Position numbers and translations under genes: made by a program. 64,000 bases of DNA, from positions 1,792,001 to 1,856,000 of the forward strand of contig OZ218778.1 in the NCBI GenBank assembly GCA_965112635.1. The letters run 5' to 3'. Under the pieces are notes generated by a model, which did not search any database, had not been told where the DNA came from, and was given only the letters and a program-made list of their open reading frames with translations. Of this stretch, positions 1,973-62,232 are shown piece after piece (within the stretch, counting starts at the first letter, position 1; each line of letters opens with the position of its first letter). This DNA is from an uncultured bacterium. Lineage in GTDB: Bacteria > Oederibacteriota > Oederibacteriia > Oederibacteriales > Oederibacteriaceae.

Positions 1973-1983
1973 AAAGCTGGGCG

Positions 1984-10688: not shown

Positions 10689-11024
10689 ATGGGGATGTGG
10701 CAGAAGTTTGAAGAGCAGCTGCAAGAGCTGTTTGACAAAATTGAACAGTTAAAAAAAGAGAATGACAGCCTAAAAAATGACGCGATGAGAGCCAAGGCTT
10801 CCCTGAACGAGAAAGATCAACTTCTGGAAACAAGCATGACGGAGATAGAGGAGAAGATTAAAATCCTGGAAGAGTCGAACGAGATGCTCAGCAGAGAGAA
10901 AGCAGGTCTGGAAAGAAAAAGTTTGGAAATGGGCAAAAGGCAAGATAGGGCAAAAGAAAAGATTGATGCCTTAATTTCCCACCTCAATGAACTGACCCAA
11001 GAAAGGCGAGAAGAAAATGTCTGA
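10689..11024 (+). CDS. Coiled-coil protein, ZapB-like
   Basis: Continuous heptad-rich sequence located between pheT and zapA, the usual zapB position. Confidence 0.55.
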   Translation: MGMWQKFEEQLQELFDKIEQLKKENDSLKNDAMRAKASLNEKDQLLETSMTEIEEKIKILEESNEMLSREKAGLERKSLEMGKRQDRAKEKIDALISHLNELTQERREENV

Positions 11025-11469
11025 ATCCAGGCCTTCCGTACGGGTGAACATTTTTAATAAGGAATATTTGATCAAAGGGGACGCGGACGTCGAATACATA
11101 GAAAGCTTAGCTAGGTATGTGGACGCGAAAATGCGGGAGATCGCCGGGAGCACAACCCTTTCTTCAGAGTTGAAGGTTTCCATTTTGGCGGCTGTGAATA
11201 TCACCGATGAACTCCACCGCCTGAAGAAAGAACATAAGACAGAGATTGAACGGCTGAAAACATCTTATGAAAAACAGAAGGAAACGTTGGCCCTTGAACT
11301 GGAAGAACAAAAGGACCGGCTCATGAAAAGCCTGGAGGAGGGCCATGAGAAAAAGGTGGAAGATCTTGTTGGCCTAAAAGAGAAAGAAAAGAATGAGTTG
11401 ATGGAAGGGATTCAGAAGAAGATAGATATCCTGACAAATTTAATCGATGAAAAATTGGATACACTATAA
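11017..11469 (+). CDS. zapA: Cell division protein ZapA with C-terminal coiled-coil extension
   Basis: VNIFNKEYLIK...LARYVDAKMREI...ILAAVNITDEL. Confidence 0.88.
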   Translation: MSESRPSVRVNIFNKEYLIKGDADVEYIESLARYVDAKMREIAGSTTLSSELKVSILAAVNITDELHRLKKEHKTEIERLKTSYEKQKETLALELEEQKDRLMKSLEEGHEKKVEDLVGLKEKEKNELMEGIQKKIDILTNLIDEKLDTL

Positions 11470-11570: not shown

Positions 11571-11759
11571 AAAATTCCCTGCGGTGTTCGTGATGAAATG
11601 ACGAGTTTTGAGCCAACACCTTTTTGGAAGGGACCCGACCTCTAAAAGCAGTGTGCATACCTTGACTCAGGTTGAGGCAGCCTAATGCTTTTTCGGGGGT
11701 ACCCACTTATTCATTAAGGTTCAAAAACCAAGTTTCACACGGCACAGGTGGGGAATTTT
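11571..11759 (+). ncRNA. ssrS: 6S RNA
   Basis: About 190 nt intergenic; closing stem AAAATTCCC...GGGAATTTT, 5' CCCTGCGGTGTTCG, internal TTTTGAGCC/GGTTCAAAA pairing; zapA upstream and 5-FTHF cyclo-ligase downstream match known 6S synteny. Confidence 0.85.
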
Positions 11760-18608: not shown

Positions 18609-18637
18609 TTGACAAACGGTATTATGACAAGTAATAT
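18609..18637 (+). promoter_or_regulatory. sigma70-type promoter heading the motor locus
   Basis: TTGACA(18609-18614)-17 bp-TAATAT(18632-18637). Confidence 0.55.
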
Positions 18638-18735: not shown

Positions 18736-19095
18736 GTGAAGGGCGTGAAAAAAGCTGATGAAATCAAAAGACCTCTGAGTTTTGCGACAGGCGAAAAACG
18801 AGAGGCCTTTAGTGCTTTGATCAGGCTTCTCCAAAATGGCGACTGTACTCCTGAAGAACTCACCAAGTATATACTTTCCCAAAAGCAATCTCAGGAACAA
18901 TCCGAAGAAACAGAAATCCCCGCTTCCCGGACATTCCATTTTGGATCCGATTATAGGACTAAAGAGCGAGCCTTTACTCATTTTGAGCATATGCCCCGGA
19001 TGGCCAAGCCAAAAGTTAATTATTTCAACTGGACGGTATTCTTCTTCTTTCTTTTCATGACCATCTTTATACTTCGCAATTTTATTTTTCGATGA
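18736..19095 (+). CDS. Hypothetical small membrane protein with one C-terminal TM helix
   Basis: GTG after AAGGG; hydrophobic WTVFFFFLFMTIFIL; first gene of the motor operon. Confidence 0.5.
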   Translation: MKGVKKADEIKRPLSFATGEKREAFSALIRLLQNGDCTPEELTKYILSQKQSQEQSEETEIPASRTFHFGSDYRTKERAFTHFEHMPRMAKPKVNYFNWTVFFFFLFMTIFILRNFIFR

Positions 19096-19105
19096 GGATA
19101 AAACA

Positions 19106-20770
19106 GTGAGCTTTATCAAAGATTGTGACAACTGGCTGCGCTTGGGAAAAATGCTTACAGGCTGGTTGTTGTTTGTGAGCATTTTCTTTATGACCAGCAT
19201 CTACGCTTTGGACTTAACCCATGGTGACCTGTTGGTCGGAAAGTTGCAATATGAAAGGGAATTAGAAAGAAGGATACAGTCCATATTGATCTCCACGGTT
19301 GGTCCTCAAAAGGCGAAAGTTTCGGTGACCCTGGAGGTCAACAGCGAAGTCGTCTCCAGCAAGGAGGAAACAATCCATTCCGAGACCACCAGCCAGACCA
19401 TTGTATTGAGCAACGGCATCCAAGAGGAGAACTTTGACAATCCTGAGGCGGGGACGGGTGGTCCAGGCAAGGAAGGCAGCGCCAATCAGGCTAGCAGCAA
19501 TGTCTTGGAAGAAACCCGGACCACCAAAGAAACCTTGTCGATGCCTTCCAATTTGATCAAAAAGCTGTCTATCTCTTTGTTGATCAGCGACAAGGTCCCT
19601 GATGCTCTTATCGAAAAAGCCAAGACCATCATTATGGAAGCAGTCAGTTTTAATGCCGACAGGGGGGACCAGCTATCTTTACAAAAGGTCACCTTTATTT
19701 CCGGTGCCGCAGGGGAGATGGAGCAGATCCAGGACCAAAAACAGACAGCGGATTTCTGGCTTGCTTTAACCCGGTATGCCTTGAGCTTGATCTTGGGGGT
19801 CGCTTTCCTTTTGTTTTTGTTCAGTTTGTTAAATACTTTCCGTACCCTGAAACAGGCTGAGATCAATGTGTCCGCTCAGGCCATAGCCGCCAAGGCAGCC
19901 CCTGCCGAAGGCGAGGTCGCAGGACCGGCCGGGGCCACGGCGATCCCGGCTGCGGGATTTGCTGCCGTAGGTGTCCCCGGCACAATGCTTCCCGGGATGC
20001 CTATGGGAATGCCTGGAACGATCACGGTTGGACCCCAGCGCTTCGCTTTCCTCCAGGAGAAGAATTCCAGGGCTCTTCTGCATTTGATCCAAAAAGAGCC
20101 GATCCAAACTATTGCTTTAGTGCTTTCCTATATTACCCCAGAGCAGGCAGCCGGGATCTTGCAGTCCCTCCCAGGGGAGATCCAAAGCCAGGTCGCCTCT
20201 AGGATCTCTACGATCAGTGAAATGTCACCGACGGAAGTGAACAGAATCGAGCAGGATATCAAAGAGAAGATCGATTATGTGGTGGGGGGCAGGGATTCCC
20301 TGGTCAATATCATCCAGAGCATGGGTCCCGATGGAATGAAGGCTATCATCGGCAATCTTGACAGGAGCAATCCAAAGCTGGCCGGTGAATTGAGGCCTTC
20401 ACTATTTACTTTCGATGATGTCCTCCTGTTGGATAGTTTTGCGATCCAGCAAGTTGTCAGGCAACTGAGCATTCCGGAACTGGCCATCGCTTTAAAAAAT
20501 GCCAGCGAAGAGATAAAGAACAAGGTTTTTGGGGCCTTGGCTGAGGGTGCCGCCCAGTTGCTCAGGCAGGAACTGGAGTTGATGAGGCCGCTGCCCGCTC
20601 GGCGCTATATAGAAGCGCAGCGTAAATTTATTCAGGCGGTAAGGATACTTGAACAACAGGGCGTAATCTTTGTGCAGAGAGAAGAATCGACTCCTTCCTC
20701 AGTCGGCGGCAACGACCTGGGTGGTGGGCCTGGTTTAGGGCCCGATTCTCCTTTGGCGCCGATGACCTAG
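19106..20770 (+). CDS. FliF C-terminal (ring-building) domain / FliG middle+C-terminal domain fusion
   Basis: N-terminal signal/TM; FliF-like YERELERRIQSIL..VG..AKVSV, IKKLSISLLI and AVSFNADRGDQL; one TM; FliG-like EPIQTIALVLSY, GG, LFTFDD, LAIALK and EAQRKFIQAVRILEQQG; alternative start ATG 19151. Confidence 0.82.
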   Translation: MSFIKDCDNWLRLGKMLTGWLLFVSIFFMTSIYALDLTHGDLLVGKLQYERELERRIQSILISTVGPQKAKVSVTLEVNSEVVSSKEETIHSETTSQTIVLSNGIQEENFDNPEAGTGGPGKEGSANQASSNVLEETRTTKETLSMPSNLIKKLSISLLISDKVPDALIEKAKTIIMEAVSFNADRGDQLSLQKVTFISGAAGEMEQIQDQKQTADFWLALTRYALSLILGVAFLLFLFSLLNTFRTLKQAEINVSAQAIAAKAAPAEGEVAGPAGATAIPAAGFAAVGVPGTMLPGMPMGMPGTITVGPQRFAFLQEKNSRALLHLIQKEPIQTIALVLSYITPEQAAGILQSLPGEIQSQVASRISTISEMSPTEVNRIEQDIKEKIDYVVGGRDSLVNIIQSMGPDGMKAIIGNLDRSNPKLAGELRPSLFTFDDVLLLDSFAIQQVVRQLSIPELAIALKNASEEIKNKVFGALAEGAAQLLRQELELMRPLPARRYIEAQRKFIQAVRILEQQGVIFVQREESTPSSVGGNDLGGGPGLGPDSPLAPMT

Positions 20771-20824: not shown

Positions 20825-21589
20825 ATGGATAAGATGTCATTGTTTGGCTATGTCTTTGGTGTCGGTATATTCCTGCTGGGTATGCACCAGGGCGGGACGA
20901 CCAGCCTTTTCTTGAATGAGCACGCGGTGGTCCTCGTGCTGGGGGGTACCTTTGCCGCTGTCATGATCAGTTCCAGTTTTGAACAGACGGTCGTCGCGTT
21001 TAAATCCCTCAAAATATTGTTTTACCCCAAGAAGTATATGCCTGCTCAAGAAATCATCGATGTGATGGTAGGCTTGGCTGAGAAGGCCAGAAGGGATGGA
21101 GTGGGTTCTCTGCCCGAGGAGGCAAAAAAATATAATGAGCCCTTTCTTTCCAACTCGGTTCAGCTAGTGGCGGACGGTTTGCCTTCTGCAACGGTCCAGG
21201 AGATCATTGAAATGGAGATCAATAATACCCGGGACCGCCATAAGGAGAACAGCAATTTCTACCGTGTGGCCGGTATCTACGGCCCCATGTTCGGTCTATT
21301 AGGAACTTTGATCGGCATCGTCCAGGTGCTGAGGAATATTGGGGGGGACCCGACCACAGTGGGTCCGGCCATGGCTGTTGCCATTACGACGGCTTTTTAC
21401 GGGATATTTCTGGCGAACTTTGTGTGTATGCCCATCGCCAATAAACTGAAATTAAGATCAGATGAAGAACTCGCTTTAAAAGAACTTACCATCGTTGGTC
21501 TTATTGCCATCGAATCCGGAGACCTACCCTTGGTTGTGCGGAGAAAGATGGAGACTTTTCTGTCCTATTCCCAGAAAAAAAAGAAATAA
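20825..21589 (+). CDS. motA: Flagellar-type stator protein MotA/PomA
   Basis: VLGGTFAA, ARRDG, GPMFGLLGTLIGIV, GPAMAVAITTAFYG, PIANKLK. Confidence 0.92.
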   Translation: MDKMSLFGYVFGVGIFLLGMHQGGTTSLFLNEHAVVLVLGGTFAAVMISSSFEQTVVAFKSLKILFYPKKYMPAQEIIDVMVGLAEKARRDGVGSLPEEAKKYNEPFLSNSVQLVADGLPSATVQEIIEMEINNTRDRHKENSNFYRVAGIYGPMFGLLGTLIGIVQVLRNIGGDPTTVGPAMAVAITTAFYGIFLANFVCMPIANKLKLRSDEELALKELTIVGLIAIESGDLPLVVRRKMETFLSYSQKKKK

Positions 21590-21659: not shown

Positions 21660-22355
21660 ATGGCCATCAGAAAAAGACCTCCTGAAGATATCGAATCCCT
21701 TATGCATCGCGGGACGCAATGGATCATTGTTTATGGCGACCTGATGTCCTATTTGATGATATTTTTCCTTATCTTGTTCGCATTTGCCTCGGCCAAAAAA
21801 GGGAATTTCGTGGAATCCCTCAAGGGAATTGAAAAAACCTTCGGGCAAAAAGAGAAGAAGATGTCCCAGGAGGCGATGAAAGAGGTTCAGGTCCAATCCG
21901 AGATACAAAGTTTTCTGGTCGCGCAAAACCTGACCCAAGTTGCCCGCGTGGTCATGACCGAACAAGATCTAAAAGTTATATTGACCAGCCCAGTGCTTTT
22001 TCCGTCCGGCTCGGCAGAGTTGCATCGCAAATCTTACGGTATTTTGCATACTATAGCCCAATCTATGAAAGATATGCCGAACTATGTCACGGTTGAGGGC
22101 TTCACGGATAATGTCCCAATTCATTCAGCCAAATACAGTTCCAACTGGGAATTGTCCGCGGCGCGAGCCATGCAAGTTGTCAAATACTTTATTGAAGAGG
22201 AGAAAATCTCTCCCACTCAGATCTCCTTCACGGGGTATGGCGAGTACCAGCCGGAATATACCAATGACACCGAAGAACACCGGGGATTGAATAGAAGGAT
22301 CGAGATTATCATCCACCGCATTTTGGTCCCCGTCACGGCAACAAAAAAATCGTGA
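21660..22355 (+). CDS. motB: Flagellar-type stator protein MotB (OmpA-like peptidoglycan-binding domain)
   Basis: WIIVYGDLMSYLMIFF with the conserved Asp; LFPSGSA, VEGFTDNVPI, SNWELSAARA, GYGEYQP, NRRIEI. Confidence 0.92.
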   Translation: MAIRKRPPEDIESLMHRGTQWIIVYGDLMSYLMIFFLILFAFASAKKGNFVESLKGIEKTFGQKEKKMSQEAMKEVQVQSEIQSFLVAQNLTQVARVVMTEQDLKVILTSPVLFPSGSAELHRKSYGILHTIAQSMKDMPNYVTVEGFTDNVPIHSAKYSSNWELSAARAMQVVKYFIEEEKISPTQISFTGYGEYQPEYTNDTEEHRGLNRRIEIIIHRILVPVTATKKS

Positions 22356-22371
22356 GAATGAGGGCGGGATT

Positions 22372-23862
22372 TTGAGAATAATCATATGGGTCCTAGCCGC
22401 TTTGATCGTGGGGGGTGCCGGTCTTGCGGCGGCCCAGGAAGCCCAGATGCCCAGCGCCGACATCTTTGTCCACGGTAATCTGGGGCAGCAAAAGATCGGG
22501 AATACGATCGTCATCCAATGCGATGTCTTTAACACGGGGCCTGTGGCGCATTTTTTCCCGGTCTCCGTGAAATTAATGAACGCTGCCGATAACATCGTCC
22601 TGCCGTTCCAGTCCATTTATTTAAAACCCGGGCAGTTCGGCACCTTGACTTTCAATTATGCCTTAAAACCCGACAGCACGAGCCTCGGCCTTTATGCGGT
22701 GGAGGGCAGTGTTTGGCAGGTTCAGGGGCCTAAAAAACGCCTGTCCCTCAAAACCGATACCCAAATCTTTGAGGTGGTGTTGGGTGAAGTTATGAAAAGT
22801 GTCGTCCTGGAAAATTTAACGCTCAAGGGGAAGGTCGTGGGAGGCTCCACGGTGTCTTTGAAATGCCTGGTCCGCAACACCGGCAAGGTTTCCTATACCT
22901 TCCCCGTGAGCGTTAATTTGAGCGGGAGCGATGGGCCTTTTATCGCACCGGTCAAGACCGTGACCCTGGGGCCCAAAAAGAACCAGGGCCTTTCTTTTGA
23001 TGTCAAAATACCCGCTGAAGGGATAGAGCCTAACGCGGTTTTGAGGGTCGTCGCCTGGGATAGGAAGGACGAGAAGGGAAAGTTGCTCATGCCTTACGCT
23101 GACGCCGTCATATCCTTGGAGACAGCCAGCCAGACCTCGGTGGAGGCGTCTTTTGACGGCGAGATAGGGGACCAGCCCCGGGGCAAGACGTTTACTATTG
23201 CTTGCAAGATTAAAAATAACGGCGGCACCCGATTTGAGTTCCCCGTCAAGCTGGATATTTTAGATTCTTCTGATGAACTGGTCGCGACCCCTAAACCTAA
23301 AAAAGTCCTTTTAAAACCAGGGGAAACGAAAAGGATCGGCTTCAGCACCGCGATCAAAGAGGTGGGTGCTTACCAAGCTGTGGTGAGTGTTTGGAAAGAA
23401 AGACGCGGACCCGACAGTTTTGTCGATAAGCTTACGGAGGAGGAACAGAATTTTTCGATTGCCAACGAAGCCACAGGAGGGGCTGAGCAGCAGGGGATGG
23501 ACCTCGGAGTCGGCGAGACCCCTTCCGTGGCCCCGCCTGCGGTGAAATTGATGGACATCATGCTGGCAACATCCCAGGACCAAAAAACACCGGTCAAGGC
23601 CCAGGTGTCCGATAAATTGGGGGCGGTTTCCTGCCGCCTCTATTACCGCCTGAGCACCGAAACAAATCCTGATTTTGTGGAGATGAACCTTTTTTCTGGA
23701 GATGCCAAGAGTGGAGTATGGGTGGGCGAGGTGGATCTCTCCAGACTTTCTGGAAAAATAATTTTTTACGCGGAAGCGGCCAATACAGAGTCCGTGCTAG
23801 GTCGATCCAAAGAATACAGTATTGCCAAGATGGCTACTCCGAAAAACAAACCCAATAAATGA
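22372..23862 (+). CDS. Secreted protein with three tandem Ig-like (CARDB/NEW3-like) repeats and a C-terminal Ig domain
   Basis: Signal peptide ending AAA-QEA; three repeats of C.V.N.G....FPV and L.PG....F. Confidence 0.65.
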   Translation: MRIIIWVLAALIVGGAGLAAAQEAQMPSADIFVHGNLGQQKIGNTIVIQCDVFNTGPVAHFFPVSVKLMNAADNIVLPFQSIYLKPGQFGTLTFNYALKPDSTSLGLYAVEGSVWQVQGPKKRLSLKTDTQIFEVVLGEVMKSVVLENLTLKGKVVGGSTVSLKCLVRNTGKVSYTFPVSVNLSGSDGPFIAPVKTVTLGPKKNQGLSFDVKIPAEGIEPNAVLRVVAWDRKDEKGKLLMPYADAVISLETASQTSVEASFDGEIGDQPRGKTFTIACKIKNNGGTRFEFPVKLDILDSSDELVATPKPKKVLLKPGETKRIGFSTAIKEVGAYQAVVSVWKERRGPDSFVDKLTEEEQNFSIANEATGGAEQQGMDLGVGETPSVAPPAVKLMDIMLATSQDQKTPVKAQVSDKLGAVSCRLYYRLSTETNPDFVEMNLFSGDAKSGVWVGEVDLSRLSGKIIFYAEAANTESVLGRSKEYSIAKMATPKNKPNK

Positions 23863-23902: not shown

Positions 23903-24580
23903 ATGAAGACAAGGTCAAAAAATATTTCAATGGAATTATCAATCAGCCTTTGTTTTCTTGTTTTGTTCTGCTTGTCCGCAGAGCTATGGGGCGCCCAGCC
24001 CAGCGCGACACCATTTTCCCCGCAGTCGGATAATGACTACGAACAAAATTACAACGAAGCGATGTCCTTTTACAATGCGGGATTGTTGGATAAGGCCAAG
24101 GCCAGCTTTCAAAAGGTGATCAAGATAAGACCAACGGCCGGAGCCTATCATTATCTGGGCATGATCAGCCAAAAAAAGAACCAGGTCAAAGACGCCATCT
24201 GGCAATGGAAGCAGGCTTTAAACTTGGAGCCGCGACTGGCTGTGGTCTGTTTTAATATCGGGTTGGCTTATGGTTCGTTGAAGCAAGTGGACGAACAGAT
24301 TAAATGGTATAAAAAGGCAGTGGCTTTAAATCCGAAATATTCAAAAGCATGGAACAATCTCGGTTCAGTGTATCTTGAGAAGAAGAGGACCACCGATGCA
24401 TTAAATGCCTTTAGGACCTCGTTGAAAACCAATCCCCATTATGCTGTGGCCGCGGAGAATCTGGCCCTGGTCTATGAAAAGATGGGTCGTCACATTGAAG
24501 CCAAGAAGGAATGGAAATACGCCGCTTCGATAGAGACGAGGCCTGAGTGGAAAAAGGTTTTGGCAGCCAGAGCCAAGTAA
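23903..24580 (+). CDS. Secreted tetratricopeptide repeat protein
   Basis: Signal peptide; about 5 TPRs (AYHYLG, FNIGLAY, AWNNLGSVY, ENLALVY). Confidence 0.85.
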   Translation: MKTRSKNISMELSISLCFLVLFCLSAELWGAQPSATPFSPQSDNDYEQNYNEAMSFYNAGLLDKAKASFQKVIKIRPTAGAYHYLGMISQKKNQVKDAIWQWKQALNLEPRLAVVCFNIGLAYGSLKQVDEQIKWYKKAVALNPKYSKAWNNLGSVYLEKKRTTDALNAFRTSLKTNPHYAVAAENLALVYEKMGRHIEAKKEWKYAASIETRPEWKKVLAARAK

Positions 24581-25781: not shown

Positions 25782-28700
25782 ATGAAGCTGGAAGGCATGT
25801 TAAAAAAAATAGGGAAGGCGGTCGTCCTGGCTCTGGTCCTGGGCCTGGGGATGATGCCTTTGGCCTATGCCGGCACCCGCATCAAAACCGTGGAATTTTT
25901 CCTGGGCCAGTATGAGATGGGGCAGGTCAATCTTATCCCTGCCCTTGAGTTTGACACCCCGTCCAAAACCATCGCCCTTCCAGAATCCTCTATTGTTGTC
26001 CGTTCAGCCTGGGTGGACATGCATTTTGTCAGCCAGGATCAAACCAATTTTGAAGCCAATTTTACCGCTGTCACCTTGACGGCAGGCTCTGCGATAGGTT
26101 TTGCCAGCACCAGCAAATTCGCCGCGGCGACAGACAGCCATGATAATGCTTATCATGTGAGATATGACTTTACTTCGGCCCTGCAAACTTTGACCACCGG
26201 CCAATGGAATACTGGTCAAAGTGTTCAGGCCAAGATCAAATTTTTTGCCGCTACCAATTTCCATGCGGTCAAGCTGTATATCACCTATGAGTATGATGAT
26301 ACTTCCGCCACCCAGCTAAAAACCGTCAGATTCCCCCTGGATTCTATGGTGGGAGATTTGACCGTAGCTGACCTTCCTTGTACCGTGATGATCCCTCCAG
26401 CGGAAAGAAGTTCCCCGGGATACAGCTTGAAAGACGCCTGGTTCGAAGTGCACGGGCAGATGGATTATATCTCCGGTGCCATGACCGTAACCGCCCAGAT
26501 CTACCAGAGCGGCACTCCCCAGGGGTCTCCTTCCCAGGGAGGCTGTATCCCTTTGATCACCGGGAACGCTAATTTTGAGTGGACTTATTTTTACGATAAT
26601 ACAGCCAACCTGGCTCTGGATGGCACAACCCAAAGCCTGCGTTTAACGGCCAAGATGGGCAGTTTCCTGCATCCGGGCGGAGAACTGGTGGTCACTTACC
26701 AGGCCACCAATGATGTTATGGGCGCCTTAAAGACCGTGGAAATACCCCTGGCCCAGGGAGTTCTGGCCAATCAAGGTCCTGCCACTTTTACAATTCTGAA
26801 TTATCTCCAGGATAGCGGGGCCAACATACAAAAAATGTGGGCCAGGGTCAGAGGCGTCTGCAATGTGAACACTTATTCGGCCATTACTATTACCGGTGTG
26901 GCCAATGGCACACCAACGGGTCAGTTTGCTTATGAAATGTTTAGTTCCGGCGGCGGTTCAGATACCATGAATGAATACGAACTCATTTATGAAATGACCC
27001 AGCCCTATGCCAACCCCATGACCGTGACCCTGACCGCTACCGGCGGCTCCTCGCCCAGCGCTGTCCTGCTGATAACCTATGGTTGGAATAAGAACCAGAA
27101 TGGACATGAGTTCAAGACGCACCGGCAGCTGATAGGACAGGAAACCAGCCCTTTCCTGTCCGGGACAGTGGGAAATGTGACCGTTTATGCCCCTGAAACT
27201 AATACCAAAACCAAACAGGCTGCTTACGCGGATTGGACCTATTTTGCCGATGCCAATTCTACCAACTGGTGGGTCAGCACTACCATATCCGCGGGTTCGG
27301 GTATGGCCCCAGCTTATGCCGCATTAGACAACAGCTATAAACAGACAGAAGGGATCAACCCAGACCTGAGTAGTGCTGTTTCTGTTTTGAATGCTTCCAA
27401 TGGTCCTTATAGTTTTAATAGGAGCGGCTTTGTCATCGGTATGATGGGCGGGGATATGATCGTGACTTATGATGTAGCTTTCCCCACTTCCACCCCAACA
27501 AGTACGCCCCCGCCGTCAACGTCAACTCCCACTACTTCTCCGACCCGGACGGCTACGGTTACGCCAACTGGAACGGCAACAACAACACCTACATCCACCT
27601 CTACTAGAACTGCCACTAATACGGTTACTCCAACTTCCACATCGACAACCACCGTTACACTGAGTCAAACAGCTTCGGTCACTCCCAGCCTGACAATCAC
27701 TCCCACTGGAACCCAGACACTCACGCAGACCTATACCGCCGGTCCCAGCCAGACGGCTACAATGACCCCTACGAGCACAACCACGATGACGGTAACAGCA
27801 ACCCCTTCAGCAACGTTGACTATGACTACCACAGTCACGCAGACAGCCACACCGAATGGCGGCGGGACGACGATGCTGGATGCGATGACTGGGTTCAGCC
27901 TAGGTAGCGACCCGTGCGGCTACTTTCCTTTGCCAAGTGGTTCCATTACTCTTTCTAAAAATTCCAGTAACTATTACGATTGTTGCAATTCTTTACAAAT
28001 ATCCAACCTTACAAGCACTGGTACTATGGTGCAGATAAAAGTTGAAGATATCACAGGTTCTCCCCAGGATTGGTCCTGTTATTCATCCGTGTCTTTTTGG
28101 ATAATGGCAACTACTTCCGGGGTGCAATATCGGATTGGTTTAAGAGACAACTCCAGTAACTGGACTTGGTCAAGCACCAGTCCGCTTACTTGTCCAACCA
28201 GCTGGACGCAAGTAACCGTCCAGTTGCAAATGTTGGGAAATCCTACCGGATACGACGGATTTAAAAGCGGTTACCTAGGCCCTAATGACTTTAGCCAACT
28301 AACTTGCGTGGAAATCGAATGTGATACGGCCAATGCGACCATACTAATGAATGACCTGGCGTTAGAAGGTAGTCCCTGCACACCTTCTCCCACGCCGTCT
28401 GGGTCGACCTATACTTATTCCTATACCTATACTTACACAACACCGCCGACCAACACCAATACCAATACTCCCACGCCTAGCAGCGCCACCTTGTACCTGT
28501 TGAATACGACAACGGGTGATTCCAGTTTGTGGTATATGGACAAAACCAACCCGTCGCCCTCCACGGATACCACCACAATTCTTTCCACGGGGACCACGGC
28601 GGCTGGTAACTATTTCCTCGTTGAGCCTGGTGTGGCCAATTCCACCTCTTCAGGCACTGTTCTTCCCACTACTTTCAGCCAGATGGGCTGGAGAAGTCCA

Positions 28701-31700
28701 AATACTTCAGGCGGGACCATTTCAGCAGGGAACTGGACCGTTAATGTGAGCCTGACCAATAAGGCGGCCAGGTCCCACAAAGGATATGTCTGGGTCAGGT
28801 TCTGGAAGAGTTCCAACCCTGACGGCAGTGCAGCCACGGCTCTCAGCCCCTGGAACGAAAGCCCGAATCTGCTCAGTTTTCCTGCCTCGGTGACCACACT
28901 AGCGGATACTTTCAACGTTTCCATGCCGCTGGTGACCCTAAATAACGAATACCTTTTTGCGGAATACCTCTGGTTGATACAGACCGCGGGCCTTTCCAAT
29001 ACAGGGTTAAAATTTGTGGCCAATGAGGCCACCGGAGAGACCCTAGTTCTACCGGGATTTATTACTTTTACCCAGACCCCTACGCTGACTATGACGCCTA
29101 CGGTTACCGCGACACCCGGGGGCGGCTCTCAGGTTTTTTATAACGGCGAGCCGGGGGGAGGATTTAGCGATGCAGATTGCGGCGGTGCCTGTGATTATAT
29201 TGACACGGGTGGCGGCCATGGTGGAGCGGTCACTGAGGACGGAGCCAGTGCACATTCCGGATCCTATGGTTTTGATTTTACCTATAATACTAGTGCTGCG
29301 GATACAGATGGTTACTTTTCCTGGACCTGGACGACCAACTATCCCAGCAGGGCCATCAACATCAACTCCTACGATACCGTGTCTTTCTGGATAAAATCGA
29401 ACAGCACCAGGAACACAGATACTCTCTTCTTTTATTTGTTTGACATTAACAATGTGGCCACGAGCTCCCTGGATATTGAGCCATATATCGCTGGAGGGGG
29501 GCCTGTCAATCTTTCGTGGAAACAGGTCTCCATACCCCTTTGGGCGTTTACTTATGGCACTTTTAATAAAACCCAAGCCGCGGGTTTTGAAATAGACCTC
29601 AGCGACTCCGCCCTCACCGGGCCGGTGACCCTGCATATGGATGACGGATATTTCATGTTCTCCGGAGTGGGCACTCCCACCACTACACCCACACCAACGG
29701 CCACACCGAATGGCAGTTGCCCTAATAACCCCGCAATGTCAAATATCAGCATAGGGGTTGGTTCGGGGTATTCCAACTATAATGCCGGAACCTATACTGT
29801 CAATGGAATGGGCAATGGTGTTACAAATAGCGCTGATTCGTTCGACCTGGATTATCTAAGCGTTACGGGAAACAGTATTACGATGGTAGCCAGGGTGACG
29901 GGGGCTACTTATAACTCCGGCATCACAATCAGAAATAGCACCGGCAACGCCGCGGCCTTGGTCGCGCTGTCCATGAATAACAGCGGCATGCTTTACTGTT
30001 TATACCGGTACAACGACGGTATGGTAGCCAATAGCACTTATTATGGAACATATTCCTTCCCTTACTACCTTAAGATCATCCGCTATGGAAGCAGTAATTT
30101 TGATCTCCAGATATCAGCGGATGGCAACACTTGGAATGAGTTGACTTTTCTGAACGGGGTATCTTTAGGCAGTACGGTTGCTGTGGGACTCGAGACCTGG
30201 GATGGCACTGACACGGTCACGGCCACCGGAACTTTTGATAATGTTTGTATTCAAAGCTCCGGGGGGGTCAGTACCCCAACCTATACCCAGACCCTGACAC
30301 CCACGCCATCAGGACCGACCAATACTATTACCAATACCTTTACTATTACCAATACGATTACCCCTTCCTTTACCCCTGTGGGAGCGACCTATACCAACAC
30401 CCCCGTTTCCTGCGGGTGGTCCGAGGCGTTGCTGAGCCCGGCTGAACAGCCCTGGCAGTCGGGATACAACGATACGCAGCCTGGCACCAACGCTCCTTAT
30501 CCAGTTGCCGGGGTAGCCAACCTGGGGCAGGGGATAGCCAATTTCGGCTGCGGCCAGGGCTATATTGCCACCAATTCGGACCAGGATGTCTACCAGTTCC
30601 GCATTCTGAGCTCGGACATCAATAACGGCACCTGCACCAATATGCTTAAGATAGTTTTCACTCCCCCGTCCACTAGTGATAGTTATTATTGTAATCTTTA
30701 TCACTGGAGCGGCTCTTCCTGGCAATCTTCGAATAGCCACAGCGGGGGCAGTGCCATGACCTTTTATTGCGATCTGTCCGCGGGCGGGAACCAGGATTTT
30801 TATATGGTCATCGGCAGCCAAAGCGGTTCCGACCAAGGTCATCCCTATGTGGTCCAGATGTCTATGTTGCAAACCGGGACTATCAGCGGCGTAGTGACGG
30901 CCGTTGGCGTGGGGGCTTCTGGGTCAAGCGGCATTGGAGTCTCGGCATGCGATTCTCAGAGCAATAGTTTTGGCGGGAGCTCCACGAACTCCTCAGGGGC
31001 CTACACGGTCCGTGTGCCAATCAATACGACGGTTTCCAAGATTACCGCGACGCGCGGATGGTACTACGGATGCGCCAGTGACTGGTCCTATGGAACTTCG
31101 GTACTTAACTACGGCGCCGGGGAGGTACTGGCCTCTCAGTGCCAAAGTCTGACCAACCAAAATTTCAATGTTTATCCTGACGCGATCTTAAAAGGAAATA
31201 TAACAGGGCTGACCAACGGGACCAGTATCAATATGAAGATCAGTGACCCCTATGGCTCCAATTTTTCAAATTACGTGCAATTTAACTATAATTCTTCCGC
31301 CCCGACCTATTATGAGATCCACAACGCCATGCCGCGCACCTATGATCTATCCGTTTATCCCAGCGATGCTACTAAAGCCCCGCTGTTCTTCCATAATATA
31401 ACCGTCACGGATGGCTTGCAGACCACCCAGAACTGGAACTTTATCTCGGGCGGCAGCATCAGCGGGACGATCTCGCCGACGGATCCCGGCGTGGAGGTAG
31501 ACTTTTACGAGGGAGGGACCAATTTTTCAGGGGATCCCATTTATACGACCAGGACCGCTTCTGGTGCTTCCTACTTTATGACCAATATGCAACCGGGTAG
31601 TTATGATATAAAGCTCAGCTCCGGTGGTGGTGGCCCGGCACCCTTTTACGCCTATAACTCAATACCCGTGACCAATGGCAACAACACCAACCAGCCGATC

Positions 31701-34700
31701 ACCGGCCTGAACGGCAATAGCACCATTTCCGGCCAGGTCTTTGACACCGCAGGTTATGGAGCCGGGAACCTTACCCTCATAGGATACAGGGTCGGAGATA
31801 ACGTCATGCAGTTGGCTATCCCTATGATGATGGTAACTCCGGTAGGGTCGGCTTCACCTTATACCTATACTTTGCCAGTGGATACCACTTATGGGGGCTC
31901 GTGGAACATTGCGTTGATTGCCAATTTGCAATCCAATAGCTGGCCGACCTTCCTGGACGCCCTTGCTAATGTTCCAGCAGGATCCACAGGCCAGAATCTT
32001 ACCACTAACGGGGGACACAAAATTTCCGGAATGGTATTAGTAGGGGGGCAGACTTTTAGCCAGCTCGGTTATTTAAATAACAGCAGTAATTTACCTGTTT
32101 TTATTTTTAATTCCAGCAATGTTTGGCGTGACGGAAACAGCCTGGACTCGTTGGGTAACTATATTTCACACCAGCTTCCTGACGGAACTTATACCCTGAA
32201 GCTTAACCAGAGATTTTTGAGTACTGCCCAGATCAGTCCGACCCTTGCGGGCGTTGACCTCTACAATCAGAACTTTAACCTTACCGTGGATCCCACACAG
32301 GATATCTTTTATCCCTATGCCAGCCAGCTCTATCCGGCCAACAATATGACCATTCTCAACAGCCAGCCGACCATCAGCGCGTCTCTGTCCGATGGGACGC
32401 TGGGCACTGCTATCCAGAACATCTCGACCAAAATAGACGGCGGCACGGTGGGGAATACTTTCAATTCCGGCGTGGTGAGCTTTAGCCCGGCTGCGGCTCT
32501 TTCCGGCGGGTCTCACAGTGCTGAGGTCAAGTTCAGTGATTCCGCCAGCCCTTCAGCCCACAGCCAGGATGAGGTCTGGACCTTCAGTATTGCCACCTCC
32601 ACCAACACCCCTTCTTCCACGCTGACCTCTACGATGACACAAACGCCGACACCCTTGCCTACACCCGTTTTCACCAGTATCAACGGCGGGCCCAGCGCGT
32701 TCCTGGGCGAGGGTGCCACTGCCCAGACCATAACTATTGTCGGAAACAATTTTGGAGGAACCATCGGGTCAGTAAGTTTCAGCGGGGCTGGTGTCACAGT
32801 GACCAGCTATCCAGCCTGGAACAACACTACTATCACTTTATCCGTCAATGTGGATACCTATGCTCCCACCAACACCATTCCCGACCGATTTCTCACTATT
32901 GTCAACGGGTCCAACGGCGGCTCCGCGATGACGGGAAATGTGTTTTATGTGGTGCCCCGGCCCAATGCCAGCATTACCACATTCATGTATCCTTCCAACC
33001 TGGGTCAGGGAGCTGTAAACGCTACCATCGATATCTTTGACCCCTCAGGATATTTCGGGTCAACTCCGGGCTCGCTCCTGCTGGATGCTCCCGGCCATAC
33101 CAATATCACCTCGTACAGCATTCAGGCGTGGGACAGTCATTCCATCACCATGACCGCCAGCGCTAGCAGCAGCGCTATTCCAGGCGACTATGGACTGACC
33201 ATCACCGCCTCTTCGGCCAGCGGATCCGGTATTGGTGTGTTTAATTGGTTCTCAGTTGTGCCCGGCCCCGTGGTCAACAGTGTTTCCACCACATCCAACC
33301 TCAACTATCTGGGCCAGGGCGCAGTCAATCAGATTGTGAATGTCTATGGCGCTGGGTTTGGGGCTAGCCGTGGGACAAGCGGGTCAGTCAGTTTCAGTGG
33401 GCCCGGTATTACAGTAAACGGATATCCAAGCTGGAGCGATAGTCAGATACAGGTCAATGTATCTGTTGCGCTAAATGCTTGGACCACATCCCGGACGGTC
33501 ACCGTGGTGAACGGCCTGAACTACGGCCAGGTAACCACGGGCAATATATTCAGCGTATCTCCTTCCCCCAATTCGTTCGGTTTCACGGTGATGACCCCTC
33601 CCGGCTTGTTCCAAGGGGCTAGCAACGTGACCATCAATCTCTATGACCCCAATGCGACTTTTGGGACCGCTCCTGGTTTGCTGCTGCTGGATAGCGCCAG
33701 CGGTAATGCCAACATTACCTCTTATAGCCCCAATATGTGGAGCGCTAATTCCATTACCCTGACCGCCAGCGTGAGCAGTACTGCCGCCTTTGGGTACTAT
33801 GCCCTGACCATCACGGCGAATGTCGGTAACGGGTCCGGTGTCGGGGCTTTCAACGGGTTCCGCATCATCCCGTCGTCCACGGCTACAGCCACGGCAACGG
33901 CGACGGCAACCAGCACCGCCACCGTGACGACCACGGCCACGCAGACAGCCACCCAGACGGCGACCCAGACGGCCACCAATACCGCCACAACCACAGCAAC
34001 TAGCACGGCTTCTAGTACGGCTACCAATACGGCGACCCAGTCTGCCACAGCTACGAGCACGGCAGCATTCACAGGGACCTATACAGCTACGGGCACGGCT
34101 ACCCAGACTGCCACGAATACAAACACCGAGACCGCGACCAGCACAGCAACAAATACGGAGACCCAGAGTGCCACTAATACGGCTTCCCAAACAGCATCCC
34201 AGACCGTGACCCTGACGGCTACAAATACAGCTACGAATTCAGCGACGGCCACGGCCACCAATACGGTGACGCAGACCGCCACAGCCACTGGCACGGCAGC
34301 ATTCACAGGGACCTATACAGCTACGGGCACGGCTACTCAGACTGCCACGAATACAAACACCGAGACCGCGACCAGCACAGCAACAAATACGGCTACCCAG
34401 ACGGCCTCCCAGACGACCACTCAGACCACCACGGCAACGGGCACGGCAGCATTCACAGGGACCTATACGGCCACAGGAACGGCTACCCAGACGGTTACGA
34501 ATACGGACACCCAGACTGGGACCAGCACAGCTACAAATACGGCTACCCAAACCTCCAGCCAGACGGCTTCCCAAACAGCATCCCAGACCACAACCCAGAC
34601 GGCCACCAATACCATAACGAATACAGCTACGGCCACAGTCACCAGCACGATCACACAGACCGCCACAGCCACGGACACGGCAGCATTTACAGGGACCTAT

Positions 34701-37004: not shown

Positions 37005-37053
37005 TGCCCTTAAAAAGGAAAGGGTCAGGAAGATGAGAATAAGGAGAGCTGGT

Positions 37054-39069
37054 ATGAAAAAAATCAGGATGGCCGGCTGGGGACTTTTGGCTTGGTTATG
37101 TTTGGCCGGACTTCTTCACGCTCAGACAGTGGTTACTGTTTCCAACCTGGCGACCATGGACAGCAACAATACTTACCGCACGACCTTTTCCAAGGGCGAG
37201 AACATCACCTTTCAGGTTAATGGATATTACAACGCGGTCACTTATTGCGCCTCCATAGGTTTTGCCTTTACCATCCAGGACCCCAATGCCAGGACCGTCC
37301 TGAGCCAGCAGGGAAATTCCGTCAGGGGGAACCTGGGGTATTCCGGACCCGTGGGTGCCAGTTTGTCCAACTTCCCCACTAATTCGTTCTTTACGGTCAG
37401 CGGGACTTATACTTTTACGGGCAAGGCCTCCGCTTACCATGTGCTGGACAACGCTGTCATGACCACGGTCAACCAGACCATGACTTTTAATATTACCTCG
37501 CCGCAAGTTTCGCTATCCTATCCTTTTAACGGCGCGCAGAACTTGGCAGACAACCCTTTGATATTCAGCTGGAGCGCATCCGGAGCGGTACAGTACGAGG
37601 TCCAGGTGGATATCAGCCAGGGGTTCAGCCAGCCTGTTTGGCAGTCCATCGTCTCGACCACCAGCGCTACCTACCCTCTTAACCCGCCGGCCAACCAGCA
37701 ACTAGTAGGAGGTACGATTTACTTCTGGAGGGTGCTGGCGCTCAATGCCGCTGGGGCAGTGGTCGCAACTTCCAGTCAGACCTACACCTTTACCAAGGCC
37801 CCTTCCCAGCAGACGCAGATAAGGGACATCGGCGTCATGGGGGTAGGCTTTCTCGACTGGACCGGCGCGTTATCGACCAGTGTAAATCTGCAGGCCAACC
37901 AATCCACCACTATTGCGGTGCAGGTGCAAAACAACGGCACCCAGACCGAAGTGAATGTTCCAGTCTATCTTTATTTGAACGGCAGGGCCTTGCCCATGCA
38001 GACCGTTTCCAGCCTGGCTTCAAATCAGAGCCAGTTCGTTTCCTTTGCCTATCAGTATGACGGCTCGGTGACCACCCTCAACGCTTCGGGAAGCGTTGAT
38101 TTTGCCGATGATAACCCTTCCAATAACCTCCTGACCAAAACCCTGTCCTTTAACCAGACCGCGGCCGGGACCGCAGGCACGGGTGGGCAGAGCGGGCCGG
38201 GCCAGGGCACTGCGGGCACGGGCGGGACCGGCCTGAGCGGAACAGCCGGGGTCACAGGAACCTATACCACAGGCAGTACCGGGACGACCATGACCGAACA
38301 GCAGGCCTGGGAAGTCATCAAGCAGTATGTGGGGGCCGGGGCTGGCGACCTGAGCGGGTATCAATACGCAGGGGTCCAGGGCGGGGATATTATTTCCCTT
38401 GCGCAGTCCCTGCAAGGCGGACAAAGCCAGGTCAGCGGCACTACGATGGTTTCCTCCGATAGTTCAGGAGCAGGGGTTTCTTACGCTTACACCCCTACGC
38501 CTTCTCCCACACTCGAGCCAACGCCCAATCCTTTGGCTAGTTTGCCTGCCGTACAGGCTGAGAATAAGGAGGCTCCTGTCATTGGATACGCGGAAACCAG
38601 CGGGTCTGTCCAGGTCAAAAGAGAAGGCTCTGACTGGCAGGGCCTCAGTAATAACTCCAATATTCAAGCAGGTGACCAAATCAGGACCTTGGCGGGAGGT
38701 CGCAGCACCATTTTTGGCCAAGATGGCATTAAAATGACCCTGTGGGAGAAAACCATTATTGACATTGACGTTGTCAAGAATAATGAGCAGGGCAAGACCG
38801 TAAAAAGTTTCAGGGTAGACAAGGGGAGCATGGAGGCGGACCTGCCAAAAGCCTCCAATACGGTTTATAAAGTTGAGTGTCCTTTGGGCATTCTAGATTG
38901 CGAAGAAGGTCTCGTTCAGTGTAAAGTCACGGATGCCCAGGACCTCTTCAGGTCCAAAAGAGGCAAGGTCTCGGTTTCTAACCTGATGGGCAAGGTCGAT
39001 GCCGAAGAGGGGAAGATCGTGGTTTTGACCAGCGGTAAAGCCCCCGTCATCTTTGAAGAAAAGAAGTAG
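37054..39069 (+). CDS. Secreted Ig/CARDB-domain protein with a C-terminal FecR domain
   Basis: Signal peptide (LHA-Q); CARDB-like VQNNGTQTE...DDNPSNN; Gly/Thr linker; FecR-like SGSVQVKR...GDQIRT....R; ATG 37054 after AAGGAG (alternative 37033). Confidence 0.7.
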   Translation: MKKIRMAGWGLLAWLCLAGLLHAQTVVTVSNLATMDSNNTYRTTFSKGENITFQVNGYYNAVTYCASIGFAFTIQDPNARTVLSQQGNSVRGNLGYSGPVGASLSNFPTNSFFTVSGTYTFTGKASAYHVLDNAVMTTVNQTMTFNITSPQVSLSYPFNGAQNLADNPLIFSWSASGAVQYEVQVDISQGFSQPVWQSIVSTTSATYPLNPPANQQLVGGTIYFWRVLALNAAGAVVATSSQTYTFTKAPSQQTQIRDIGVMGVGFLDWTGALSTSVNLQANQSTTIAVQVQNNGTQTEVNVPVYLYLNGRALPMQTVSSLASNQSQFVSFAYQYDGSVTTLNASGSVDFADDNPSNNLLTKTLSFNQTAAGTAGTGGQSGPGQGTAGTGGTGLSGTAGVTGTYTTGSTGTTMTEQQAWEVIKQYVGAGAGDLSGYQYAGVQGGDIISLAQSLQGGQSQVSGTTMVSSDSSGAGVSYAYTPTPSPTLEPTPNPLASLPAVQAENKEAPVIGYAETSGSVQVKREGSDWQGLSNNSNIQAGDQIRTLAGGRSTIFGQDGIKMTLWEKTIIDIDVVKNNEQGKTVKSFRVDKGSMEADLPKASNTVYKVECPLGILDCEEGLVQCKVTDAQDLFRSKRGKVSVSNLMGKVDAEEGKIVVLTSGKAPVIFEEKK

Positions 39070-61836: not shown

Positions 61837-62232
61837 ATGAACTGGAAAAAGGTTGTTCTTTGTATTTTTATTACCCTTTTCTCCTTATGGGGCAATCTTG
61901 CATTCAGCCAAGGCATTCCATGGCTGGACCAAGATGGGTTGTTTCTGGGCCATAACAAGATCAATCCGCTGAATCATGAGTCTGTATCTGTTGTCTATCA
62001 TTTGGCGCAGGACACCCATGTGGTCATAAAAATTTATGATCTTTCCGGCCAGAAACTTATCAGGACATTAGTGGACGGGAATTTTGGAGGGAGTTGGTCA
62101 TACCAAGTTTTTTGGGATGGCACCAGTAGAAGTGGAGATGTTGTTGGAAATGGTATTTACGTCATTCAGTTAGTAACCAAAAGTGTAAATATACTCAAAT
62201 TCATTGCCGTGGTTAAAACCACAGGCAGTTAA
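61837..62232 (+). CDS. Small secreted stand-alone FlgD-Ig/T9SS-CTD-like protein
   Basis: Signal peptide (AFS-Q) followed only by NKINPL...IKIYDLSG..IRTLVDG...WDG....GDVVGNGIY...IAVVK. Confidence 0.78.
   Translation: MNWKKVVLCIFITLFSLWGNLAFSQGIPWLDQDGLFLGHNKINPLNHESVSVVYHLAQDTHVVIKIYDLSGQKLIRTLVDGNFGGSWSYQVFWDGTSRSGDVVGNGIYVIQLVTKSVNILKFIAVVKTTGS

Follow-up and report, generated by a model that had tools for sequence, protein, structure and literature searches.

A natural FliF-FliG fusion gene beside motA and motB: probable rotor subunit of a motor without a flagellum

Background

Descriptions of the flagellar motor always have its rotor assembled around a machine for type III export. The window analysed here (the whole stretch of 64,000 nucleotides, positions 1,792,001 to 1,856,000 of contig OZ218778.1, from an uncultured member of the Oederibacteriaceae) raises the question of whether a flagellar-type rotor can exist and work without that machine. 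At positions 19106..20770 of the window, a single gene joins the C-terminal ring-building part of FliF to the middle and C-terminal domains of FliG, and genes for the stator proteins MotA and MotB follow it on the same strand. An earlier sequence-only reading, made without database searches, had called this gene a natural FliF-FliG fusion and a minimal one-polypeptide rotor. Following the analysis given below, we consider it probable that the product of this gene is a rotor subunit in one polypeptide, belonging to a motor that needs no flagellum and has no housing for the export gate.

Architecture of the fusion protein

The fusion gene and its parts are listed in window coordinates (RBM, ring-building motif; TM, transmembrane; aa, amino acids).

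19094..19098, plus strand: GAGGA, Shine-Dalgarno-like, with a 7-nt spacer to GTG 19106
19106..20770, plus strand: fusion gene of FliF RBM3/collar, TM helix, linker, FliG_M and FliG_C; 554 aa, GTG start; from open reading frame (ORF) and domain searches
19106..19207, plus strand: N-terminal segment (residues 1-34) with a positive start, a hydrophobic core at 17-35, and I-Y-A followed by L35; from heuristics
19232..19711, plus strand: periplasmic domain of FliF of RBM3 and beta-collar type, the S-ring part (residues 43-202); from Pfam, hhalign and a PDB profile
19775..19831, plus strand: single TM helix, counterpart of FliF TM2 (residues 224-242); hydropathy 2.52, aligned with TM2 of full-length fusions
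19832..20041, plus strand: linker rich in Ala/Gly/Pro/Met, replacing the FliF tail and FliG_N (residues 243-312)
20039..20281, plus strand: FliG middle domain (residues 312-392), with E-P-I-Q...R at the EHPQR positions
20285..20290, plus strand: Gly394-Gly395 hinge, with G in 112/118 family rows at each column
20354..20680, plus strand: FliG C-terminal domain (residues 417-525), torque helix at 464-497

The reading frame is unbroken through 554 codons. In Pfam searches, YscJ_FliF_C (PF08345) matched residues 61-197 (44.4 bits, E 3e-11, cut-off 23.8), and YscJ_FliF (PF01514), which covers RBM1/2, gave no match in the fusion protein at E<=1; control full-length FliFs score 195-204 bits for YscJ_FliF. 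In Salmonella FliF, PF01514 spans 33-221 and PF08345 spans 253-437, the latter being a split RBM3 with an insert (excerpts of PMC6079021). By profile-profile comparison with FliF-only columns in hhalign, the periplasmic part was matched at a probability of 98.6% (E 8e-16), with residues 43-202 falling on columns 227-405 of the 470 FliF columns and columns 1-226 left without any aligned residue. The similarity to FliF_C that the sequence-only reading had expected at residues ~40-200 is therefore present, and its statement that RBM1/2 are missing held in both searches. A profile of 118 relatives (selected as described below) was likewise compared in hhalign with natural fusions of full-length FliF and FliG; the two are colinear through 463 columns, beginning at template column 232, past the RBM1/RBM2 region. 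Against PDB, a 6-sequence profile of the periplasmic domain drew 7 sequences at E<=10 (SpoIIIAG at E 0.002, five FliF at E 0.02 to 0.8 and one unrelated tRNA synthetase), and single-sequence phmmer with the same domain drew 0. The NCBIfam fliF model TIGR00206 scored 37.2 bits against a cut-off of 129.75, with residues 46-141 on model positions 241-340 of 555.

The most conserved feature of this periplasmic domain in the family is a Pro-Gly pair at the columns of window residues 117-118, inside the collar insert, where Pro and Gly occur in at least 90% of family rows (consensus L-P-G-V-P). The pair is not conserved in FliF, and the window protein has Thr-Gly. These columns may be a contact site for a periplasmic partner.

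Two hydrophobic segments were located by hydropathy, at residues 17-35 and 224-242. Residues 1-34 are likely to be a cleavable signal peptide, the alternative being an N-terminal anchor. By simple rules, a strong N-terminal hydrophobic core was found in 110/117 family members, a net positive start in 106/117 and a small-x-small site after the core in 112/117, the uncharged run having a median of 18 residues; the I-Y-A/L site of the window protein is mirrored by L-R-A/M and A-F-A/I in relatives. The sequence-only reading had combined such a signal peptide with a start at ATG 19151. The signal peptide is plausible by the same rules, but GTG 19106 appears to be the better start, because GAGGA stands 7 nt upstream of it and the residues preceding M16 align with the closest homologue, P0002. 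Starting at ATG 19151 would leave the hydrophobic segment unchanged.

Beyond the TM helix, the FliF cytoplasmic tail for co-folding with FliG_N was not seen in the fusion protein, and a low-complexity linker of 70 aa (A16, G10, P8) stands there instead. Linker length across the family has a median of 56 aa and a range of 42-89. The FliG-derived part follows, with Pfam FliG_M at residues 322-392 (72.8 bits, E 3e-20) and FliG_C at residues 417-521 (100.6 bits, E 8e-29), and the protein ends in a Gly/Pro-rich tail. A phmmer search of PDB with the whole fusion protein returned 14 sequences, all FliG, of which Thermotoga FliG-MC (1lkv) was the best (E 7.5e-40, residues 312-525). NCBIfam fliG TIGR00207 scored 151.8 bits against a cut-off of 226.7, placing residues 312-526 on model positions 111-331 of 338.

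A FliF C-terminal part, TM helix, linker and FliG M/C domains in one ORF, as the sequence-only reading had them, were thus borne out by Pfam and hhalign. The same reading had expected a hidden Markov model scan to hit FliF_C, FliG_M and FliG_C only; all three were found, together with a nominal FliG_N match of 28.4 bits (cut-off 25) at residues 333-421. FliG_N was judged absent because this sole match overlies FliG_M and a domain of that size would not fit into the linker, and the match is best read as an ARM-repeat cross-match with no extra domain behind it. As a control, a genuine FliG_N (in locus L001 of the genome scan described below) scored 107.6 bits and occupies a separate stretch (residues 83-179) ahead of FliG_M.

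A widespread family of the same build

Apart from the window protein itself, a word-indexed search returned three proteins built in this way (P0002 with 56% identity, P0003 and P0004 with 29%), and an exhaustive profile search returned 12,172 proteins at E<=1e-3, mostly ordinary FliG; a further profile query for homologues added none. The best 150 of the 12,172 and the word-search matches, 166 proteins together, were examined, and 118 were selected by a length of 440-750 and a TM segment at 150-270. The 118 rows include the window protein and one misfit, P0146, which lies on the canonical side in the tree. The same architecture was found in at least 117 clusters at 50% identity, and since more than 100 homologous clusters are colinear, the fusion is neither chance nor an assembly artefact. 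Fourteen further rows resemble fragments or other forms; 12/14 have Gly at the torque-helix column of R281.

Among the first 80 members scanned, FliG_C and FliG_M were each found in 80/80, YscJ_FliF_C in 49/80 at E<=1e-3 and TPR_1 in 31/80, with YscJ_FliF not present among 25 of the 27 families, those listed for the 80 members. The tetratricopeptide repeats (TPR) of relatives are C-terminal, at profile positions 518-599, and 43/117 relatives extend at least 80 aa beyond FliG_C; to call the rotor 'minimal', as the sequence-only reading did, is therefore too strong. An extra hydrophobic helix at the extreme C-terminus, after FliG_C, was observed in P0003, P0004, P0019, P0023, P0059 and the proteins of loci L002-L006, and not in the window protein. 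In those relatives it would anchor the rotor domain to the membrane at its far end as well.

Trees were computed from the FliG-MC columns. FastTree, with 165 rows, placed 33 canonical FliG-like rows and P0146 opposite 131 others (local support 99). IQ-TREE (quick search), with a family sample of 50/117 rows (5 picked, 45 random), separated the 50 from 33 canonical FliGs by one split with a Shimodaira-Hasegawa-like approximate likelihood ratio test (SH-aLRT) value of 97.3, so that in the comparison with flagellar FliG called for by the sequence-only reading all sampled family rows fall together on one side of a single branch. Within the family, the branch nearest the canonical FliGs is that of the window protein with P0002 (support 97 in IQ-TREE, 89 in FastTree). 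The trees are unrooted and do not give the direction of evolution. By these results the family is both real and old.

PheS encoded in the window shares 59% identity with its best non-self match and about 54% with proteins from many phyla, which marks the organism as belonging to a deep lineage with little sampling. Atlas clusters nearest P0003 and P0002 have 51-247 members with FliG_C, FliG_M and YscJ_FliF_C. As leads only, the phyla recorded most often for these clusters are Elusimicrobiota, Cloacimonadota, Bdellovibrionota, Bacteroidota, Balneolota, Pseudomonadota and Thermodesulfobacteriota, Elusimicrobiota being the commonest for the nearest clusters. According to a preprint (10.1101/2022.07.08.499144), most free-living Elusimicrobiota carry motAB and fliG homologues although they lack flagellar structural genes, a combination whose role it calls unclear. 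In a plasmid collection, 187 records matched and 0 covered at least 80% of the query, the listed matches all being ordinary fliG. No publication on the RBM3-TM-FliG_MC architecture was found by full-text search, outside the scope of which lay subscription journals and preprint supplements; the published fusions found are laboratory FliF-FliG constructs of Salmonella and Vibrio and one natural case in Chlamydiaceae.

Stator genes and the rotor-stator interface

The stator genes follow the fusion gene directly.

20825..21589, plus strand: MotA/PomA-type stator A subunit, 254 aa; Pfam MotA_ExbB 94.4 bits, PDB MotA 9lu9 E 6e-42
21660..22355, plus strand: MotB-type stator B subunit, 231 aa, with plug, channel Asp (Y-G-D-L-M-S) and OmpA-like peptidoglycan-binding domain

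The gaps are 55 nt between the fusion gene and motA and 71 nt between motA and motB, all on the same strand, and a terminator scan gave no convincing terminator among the three genes. MotA matched the NCBIfam models for PomA, MotA and MotP with E values from 1e-51 to 3e-54, though none reached its equivalog cut-off (the best, PomA, at 183.9 bits against 341), and the TolQ and ExbB models only at E 6e-5 and 4e-3, which places it by similarity with the flagellar type rather than with TolQ/ExbB. In MotB, the plug scored 39.9 bits and the OmpA domain 74.6 bits, and the channel Asp is retained. An identity as a Zorya anti-phage system, which would have a long-tailed ZorA together with ZorC/D or ZorE, was considered and rejected, as PADLOC gave no match for MotA or the fusion protein and only generic ZorB matches for MotB.

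One MotB only, with Asp, is encoded in the window. Two MotB paralogues stand in tandem in three of the related loci (L002 5361-6806, L005 8839-10343, L006 5555-7022), the first with the channel Asp (Y-S-D-L-M-T) and the second with Asn in its place (Y-G-N-L-M-T), plug and OmpA domain being retained. The second could be a non-conducting stator partner or a stator regulator.

Rotor residues were read from the family alignment, the columns being fixed by canonical rows of the same alignment and the torque-helix charges being numbered as in E. coli. Canonical FliGs in this alignment have K, R, E/D, D/E and R at the charge columns and E-H-P-Q...R in FliG_M. At the positions of K264, R281, D288, D289 and R297 the window protein has K, G, Q, E and P. 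Across the 118 family rows, 90 have K or R at the K264 position, and the R281 position is Gly in 103 and Arg in 2, the D288 position E in 64 and Q in 53 (E or Q in 117/118), the D289 position E in 93, and the R297 position T, P or S in 96. The R281 column is Arg in 30/48 rows outside the family selection, in which every full-length FliG reads K-R-E/D-D/E. The EHPQR motif of FliG_M, the FliM-binding surface, is degraded in the window protein, with 3/5 residues retained (E, Q, R). In the family, Arg at R160 of the motif is retained in 14/118 rows, and the H126 column is P in 43, S in 26, T in 11, D in 11, K in 6 and E in 6 of 118, with His outside these six commonest residues.

Four cognate MotA sequences were compared (window, L002, L005 and L006), their positions being mapped to E. 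coli R90 and E98 from an 8-residue motif spacing. Arg is present at the R90 position in 4/4. The E98 position, so mapped, is P in the window MotA and V, A and A in the three relatives, with an invariant Glu two residues later. The contacts reported for E. coli are MotA R90 with FliG D288/D289 and MotA E98 with FliG R281 (passages of PMC12505986 and PMC7564593). Given a non-acidic residue at E98 in MotA and Gly at R281 in the FliG part, both partners of that pair have been replaced together. With one salt-bridge pair kept and the other replaced on both sides, the aligned residues are consistent with a working, remodelled contact, and are not proof of one.

Genomic neighbourhood

The window covers 64 kb of a 2.88-Mb genome, and statements on the neighbourhood refer to that scope. 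The following genes lie downstream of motB.

22372..23862, plus strand: secreted protein, 496 aa, with weak immunoglobulin (Ig)-like and CARDB-like matches, starting 17 nt after motB
23903..24580, plus strand: TPR protein, 225 aa, with an N-terminal signal-like segment
24788..25768, plus strand: outer-membrane barrel of the PorV/PorQ family, 326 aa; 157.1 bits for NCBIfam NF033709 against a cut-off of 90
25782..37004, plus strand: Thr/Ser-rich secreted protein, 3740 aa, with a C-terminal sorting domain of type IX secretion system (T9SS) type
37033..39069, plus strand: secreted CARDB-domain protein, 678 aa
48236..61780, plus strand: 4514-aa protein with degenerate 114-nt repeats and a weak end resembling a T9SS C-terminal domain (CTD)
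61837..62232, plus strand: T9SS type A sorting-domain protein, 131 aa; TIGR04183 25.7 bits, cut-off 23
62239..63891, plus strand: PorV/PorQ-family barrel fused to TPR repeats, 550 aa; NF033709 161.5 bits

A Pfam scan of the 36 other large ORFs of the window found no flagellar proteins, and among the window ORFs scanned there was no GldL/PorL, GldM/PorM, PorK, PorN or SprA/Sov. The 496-aa Ig-like protein gave no match to the GldM/PorM family; it is a candidate periplasmic partner of the rotor. The last 134 aa of the 3740-aa protein matched the extreme C-termini of PorU (E 7e-13), PorZ (E 4e-10) and M6-like T9SS cargo; TIGR04183 scored 20.2 bits, below the cut-off of 23, and CHU_C matched at E 0.007. 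The 4514-aa ORF consists of 48% Thr, 16% Ala and 10% Asn, in degenerate tandem repeats with a commonest period of 114 nt and up to 16 copies, and being built of repeats explains the extreme strand skews of stretch 48236-61780.

A genome scan gave six loci (L001-L006), five of which (L002-L006, from metagenome-assembled genomes, MAGs) carry a full-length relative of the fusion protein at 26-29% identity. In 5/5 MAG loci, where the contig reaches, the order is T9SS type B/A cargo, then a barrel with TPR, then the fusion gene. The cargo scored 35.7 and 40.6 bits for TIGR04131 against a cut-off of 35, and the barrels, of 823-842 aa, are PorV/PorP-like with TPR (E 1e-14 to 7e-16; PorV_fam 52-70 bits, below the cut-off of 90). 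MotA, MotB and a second MotB come after the fusion gene in the three loci that reach that far (L002, L005 and L006), and further downstream there are a histidine kinase, a response regulator-GGDEF (RR-GGDEF) protein and more response regulators. The 550-aa barrel-TPR protein of the window is colinear with the 842-aa gene directly preceding the fusion gene in L002-L006 and matched the MAG barrel by BLASTP at 23% identity over 604 aa (E 3e-22), and the 326-aa window barrel shares 28% identity over 323 aa (E 1e-16) with the barrel adjoining the L005 fusion gene. By these alignments, the barrels of the two clades are considered homologous. Binding to PorP-like barrels has been reported for CTD proteins of type B, among them SprB, a gliding adhesin (PMC9143113).

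The MAG records L002-L006 are labelled Clostridia despite OmpA-type MotB, PorV/PorP-like barrels and T9SS sorting domains, and the label was not relied on. It may be wrong, as the gene content would be more in keeping with a diderm from a different lineage.

Between the fusion gene and the gene before it there is a gap of 558 nt. No riboswitch or other Rfam family was found in it, and only one inverted repeat, a weak one. A promoter and terminator scan was uninformative, with 13 promoter-like sites against 6.8 expected and 9 terminator-like sites against 10.2 expected. A sigma-70-like site, TTGACA-17-TAATAT, lies at 18609-18637. Also within the gap is a 119-aa candidate ORF (18736-19095, plus strand) with a hydrophobic C-terminal tail, which stops 11 nt before the fusion gene and gave no match in family searches.

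Elsewhere in the window, a 6S RNA (Rfam RF00013, 92.7 bits, full length) was found at 11573-11758 (plus strand), directly after zapA (11017-11469), and is followed by an MgsA-type AAA ATPase and 5-formyltetrahydrofolate cyclo-ligase. The arrangement is reminiscent of zapA-ssrS-ygfA in E. coli. A DUF327 protein (93 bits) is encoded at 1966-2445 (plus strand) in a riboflavin operon, between ribE and ribBA.

Proposed mechanism and alternatives

In the mechanism that we propose, the Sec-type signal sequence would deliver the FliF RBM3/beta-collar domain to the periplasm, where, by homology, it would oligomerise into an S-ring-like ring, with the inner membrane spanned by one TM helix per subunit. 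The flexible tether of ~70 residues would substitute for the joint of FliF tail and FliG_N and hold FliG_M and FliG_C beneath the membrane. MotA and MotB would form peptidoglycan-anchored, ion-driven stator units, and the MotA loops would push the FliG_C torque helix through the remodelled charge interface, as the conserved and jointly changed residues suggest. Since the RBM1/RBM2 region is missing, such a ring cannot hold the export apparatus or build a rod. The sequence-only reading had likewise proposed a ring with no export-gate housing; this agrees with the absence of RBM1/2 here, with the families listed for the 80 scanned relatives and with what the preprint on Elusimicrobiota states. 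The turning periplasmic collar may serve secretion, anchoring or movement of surface proteins, resembling the role of GldLM in Bacteroidota. A T9SS-like surface-protein apparatus is put forward tentatively as the leading candidate for the output of the motor, because the conserved neighbours are PorV/PorQ-like barrels with TPR and T9SS-sorting-domain cargo, including giant proteins.

Several points weigh against this proposal. Ring formation and the contact between MotA and FliG are drawn from homology, and a flexible tether of 42-89 residues is an odd means of passing torque across a membrane. The NCBIfam equivalog cut-offs were missed by all of FliF, FliG, MotA and MotB. With E, Q and R of the motif retained, binding of FliM in the window organism is possible, and a full flagellar or GldLM/T9SS core set elsewhere in the 2.88-Mb genome is conceivable. 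The relatives in Atlas clusters come also from often-flagellated phyla (Pseudomonadota, Balneolota and Thermodesulfobacteriota, as leads only). As to the T9SS link, it draws on two independent clades, the five MAG loci being close relatives of one another, and pairs of cargo and barrel may simply be frequent in such genomes.

The tether and the torque helix, with 3/5 of its classic charges lost, would also suit a ring or oligomer that does not rotate: a static scaffold or a sensor on which MotAB performs conformational work dependent on the proton motive force (PMF), as in Tol/Ton, or a device that sequesters or regulates stators. The cytoplasmic TPR domains added in many relatives could be read in the same way, and the histidine kinase, RR-GGDEF protein and response regulators of the MAG loci suggest signalling. 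This is unlikely, however, since a MotB anchored to peptidoglycan like that of the flagellar stator leaves the MotA pentamer as the moving part, the pair of Arg (R90) and acidic residues (D288/289) and the Gly-Gly hinge are conserved family-wide, and the FliG_C fold is found in 80/80 scanned members.

Slightly less likely again is a place in a true flagellum, as a lineage-specific replacement or an accessory rotor ring, with the export gate housed by another protein encoded elsewhere. Every domain of the protein is flagellar in origin, its branch with P0002 stands beside canonical FliG (89 in FastTree, 97 in IQ-TREE) and has kept three EHPQR residues (E, Q and R), there are natural fusions of full-length FliF to FliG in which the canonical residues are present, and often-flagellated phyla are found among the Atlas rows. 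Against these stand the absence of RBM1/2 from the fusion, the result of 0/36 flagellar proteins among the other scanned ORFs of the window, the T9SS-like operon partners and the report in 10.1101/2022.07.08.499144 that free-living Elusimicrobiota have fliG and motAB but no genes for flagellar structure. That the gene is a relic decaying after the loss of a flagellum, or owes its fused form to a sequencing or assembly error, is suggested by low equivalog scores, the loss of several canonical motifs and a low-complexity linker, but is highly improbable in view of the frame intact over 554 codons, the colinear architecture in 117 clusters (50% identity or less) with family-specific conserved residues, the intact cognate MotAB, and synteny shared by clades at only 26-29% identity.

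If the proposed motor without a flagellum is real, a widespread, conserved FliF(RBM3)-FliG(MC) protein with its own stator would show that a torque module can exist and be selected alone, which bears on the old question of how motor and secretion system were joined. It would offer a testable explanation for the puzzling fliG and motAB genes of unflagellated phyla and, as one protein plus MotAB, a simpler rotor for structural and single-molecule study. Should the association with PorV-like barrels and with giant CTD proteins hold, it would point to an apparatus of a new sort, spanning the envelope, by which surface proteins are moved or exported. More speculatively, and in our view doubtful as a whole, this would be a third use of the flagellar rotor-stator principle: an inner-membrane rotary engine with no type III secretion system, driving a T9SS-like surface-protein or gliding apparatus in unflagellated phyla, of which Elusimicrobiota are the commonest recorded. 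It would be either an exaptation of flagellar parts or a surviving relative of the motor from before its union with an export apparatus, with the window lineage, whose branch lies nearest canonical FliG, as the form closest to that union.

Comparison with known systems

Compared with flagellar FliF and FliG working with MotA5B2, the fusion has RBM3/beta-collar, TM2, FliG_M, the Gly-Gly hinge and the FliG_C torque helix, and motA and motB of the window are adjacent and encode plug, channel Asp and peptidoglycan-binding domain. The FliF:FliG ratio is locked at 1:1 by the fusion. In contrast to the flagellar proteins, there is one polypeptide, in which TM1 is probably a cleaved signal peptide rather than a stable anchor, and RBM1/RBM2, the FliF tail and FliG_N are missing. 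The RBM1/RBM2 region of FliF houses the export gate (excerpts of PMC11739650). The motor residues also differ, with EHPQR degraded, Arg281 changed to Gly, Arg297 lost and the MotA E98 position non-acidic, and there are no flagellar neighbours in the window.

Covalent FliF-FliG subunits made in the laboratory (Salmonella; Vibrio FliFG) assemble into rings, according to passages of PMC6079021 and PMC11481574, and the Vibrio FliFG entry of PDB, 8z4d, is a match of the window protein. The laboratory fusions consist of two complete proteins (945 aa in 8z4d) within a normal flagellum, whereas the window protein is natural, has 554 aa, and is without ~220 N-terminal FliF residues and the whole joint of FliF tail and FliG_N.

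Natural fusions with a complete FliF were also observed among predicted proteins from metagenome-derived collections: P0160 is FliF with FliG N-M-C, and P0089 and P0112 are FliF RBM1-3 with FliG M-C and no FliG_N. All three are colinear with the window protein from RBM3 through the end of FliG_C (463 columns). Unlike it, they retain YscJ_FliF (195-204 bits) and canonical K-R-E-D/E, and their tree position is with canonical FliG. P0089 and P0112 read EHPQR and P0160 reads ERPQR. The proposal of the sequence-only reading that fusion makes FliG_N unnecessary gains support from P0089 and P0112, which keep canonical torque-helix and EHPQR residues without that domain. A further protein, P0080 (996 aa), combines FliM, DUF4116 repeats and FliG M-C in one chain. 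For these four the same full-text search found no publication.

The published natural case, in Chlamydiaceae, is likewise a shortened FliF joined to a piece of FliG in bacteria without flagella. As described by Bergeron (bioRxiv 10.1101/023564), it has ~330 aa, with RBM2 kept, the SpoIIIAG-like RBM3 absent and a FliG_M-like end only. The parts retained are thus complementary to RBM3 and FliG_M+C of the window protein, and in that text the Chlamydiaceae protein is discussed with the injectisome and with no stator, whereas the window protein has its own MotAB. The NCBIfam model PRK05934 matches the window protein at residues 317-363 (E 4e-6), where it scores 26.2 and the cut-off is 297.

For ring formation by an RBM3-type domain alone, the sporulation protein SpoIIIAG (PDB 5wc3) is a precedent. 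It is the best PDB match of the periplasmic-domain profile (E 0.002), the NCBIfam model spore_III_AG touches residues 48-98, and both proteins have an RBM3-type domain with an inserted beta region; SpoIIIAG forms a large homo-oligomeric ring without RBM1/2, with 30 chains in the PDB entry. It differs in being a Firmicutes protein without FliG part or stator.

GldLM is a PMF-driven inner-membrane motor that powers T9SS secretion and movement of SprB (portions of PMC8986121 and PMC9389320). Both GldLM/PorLM and the motor proposed here would transmit PMF-driven work across the periplasm to an outer-membrane surface-protein apparatus, and the window rotor has as neighbours barrels of the PorV/PorQ family and CTD cargo, some of it giant. 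The rotor has no sequence relation to GldLM/PorLM. The rotating part in current models of GldLM is the inner GldM dimer, whereas in the motor proposed here it would be a large ring of FliG type, with the B subunit fixed to the cell wall.

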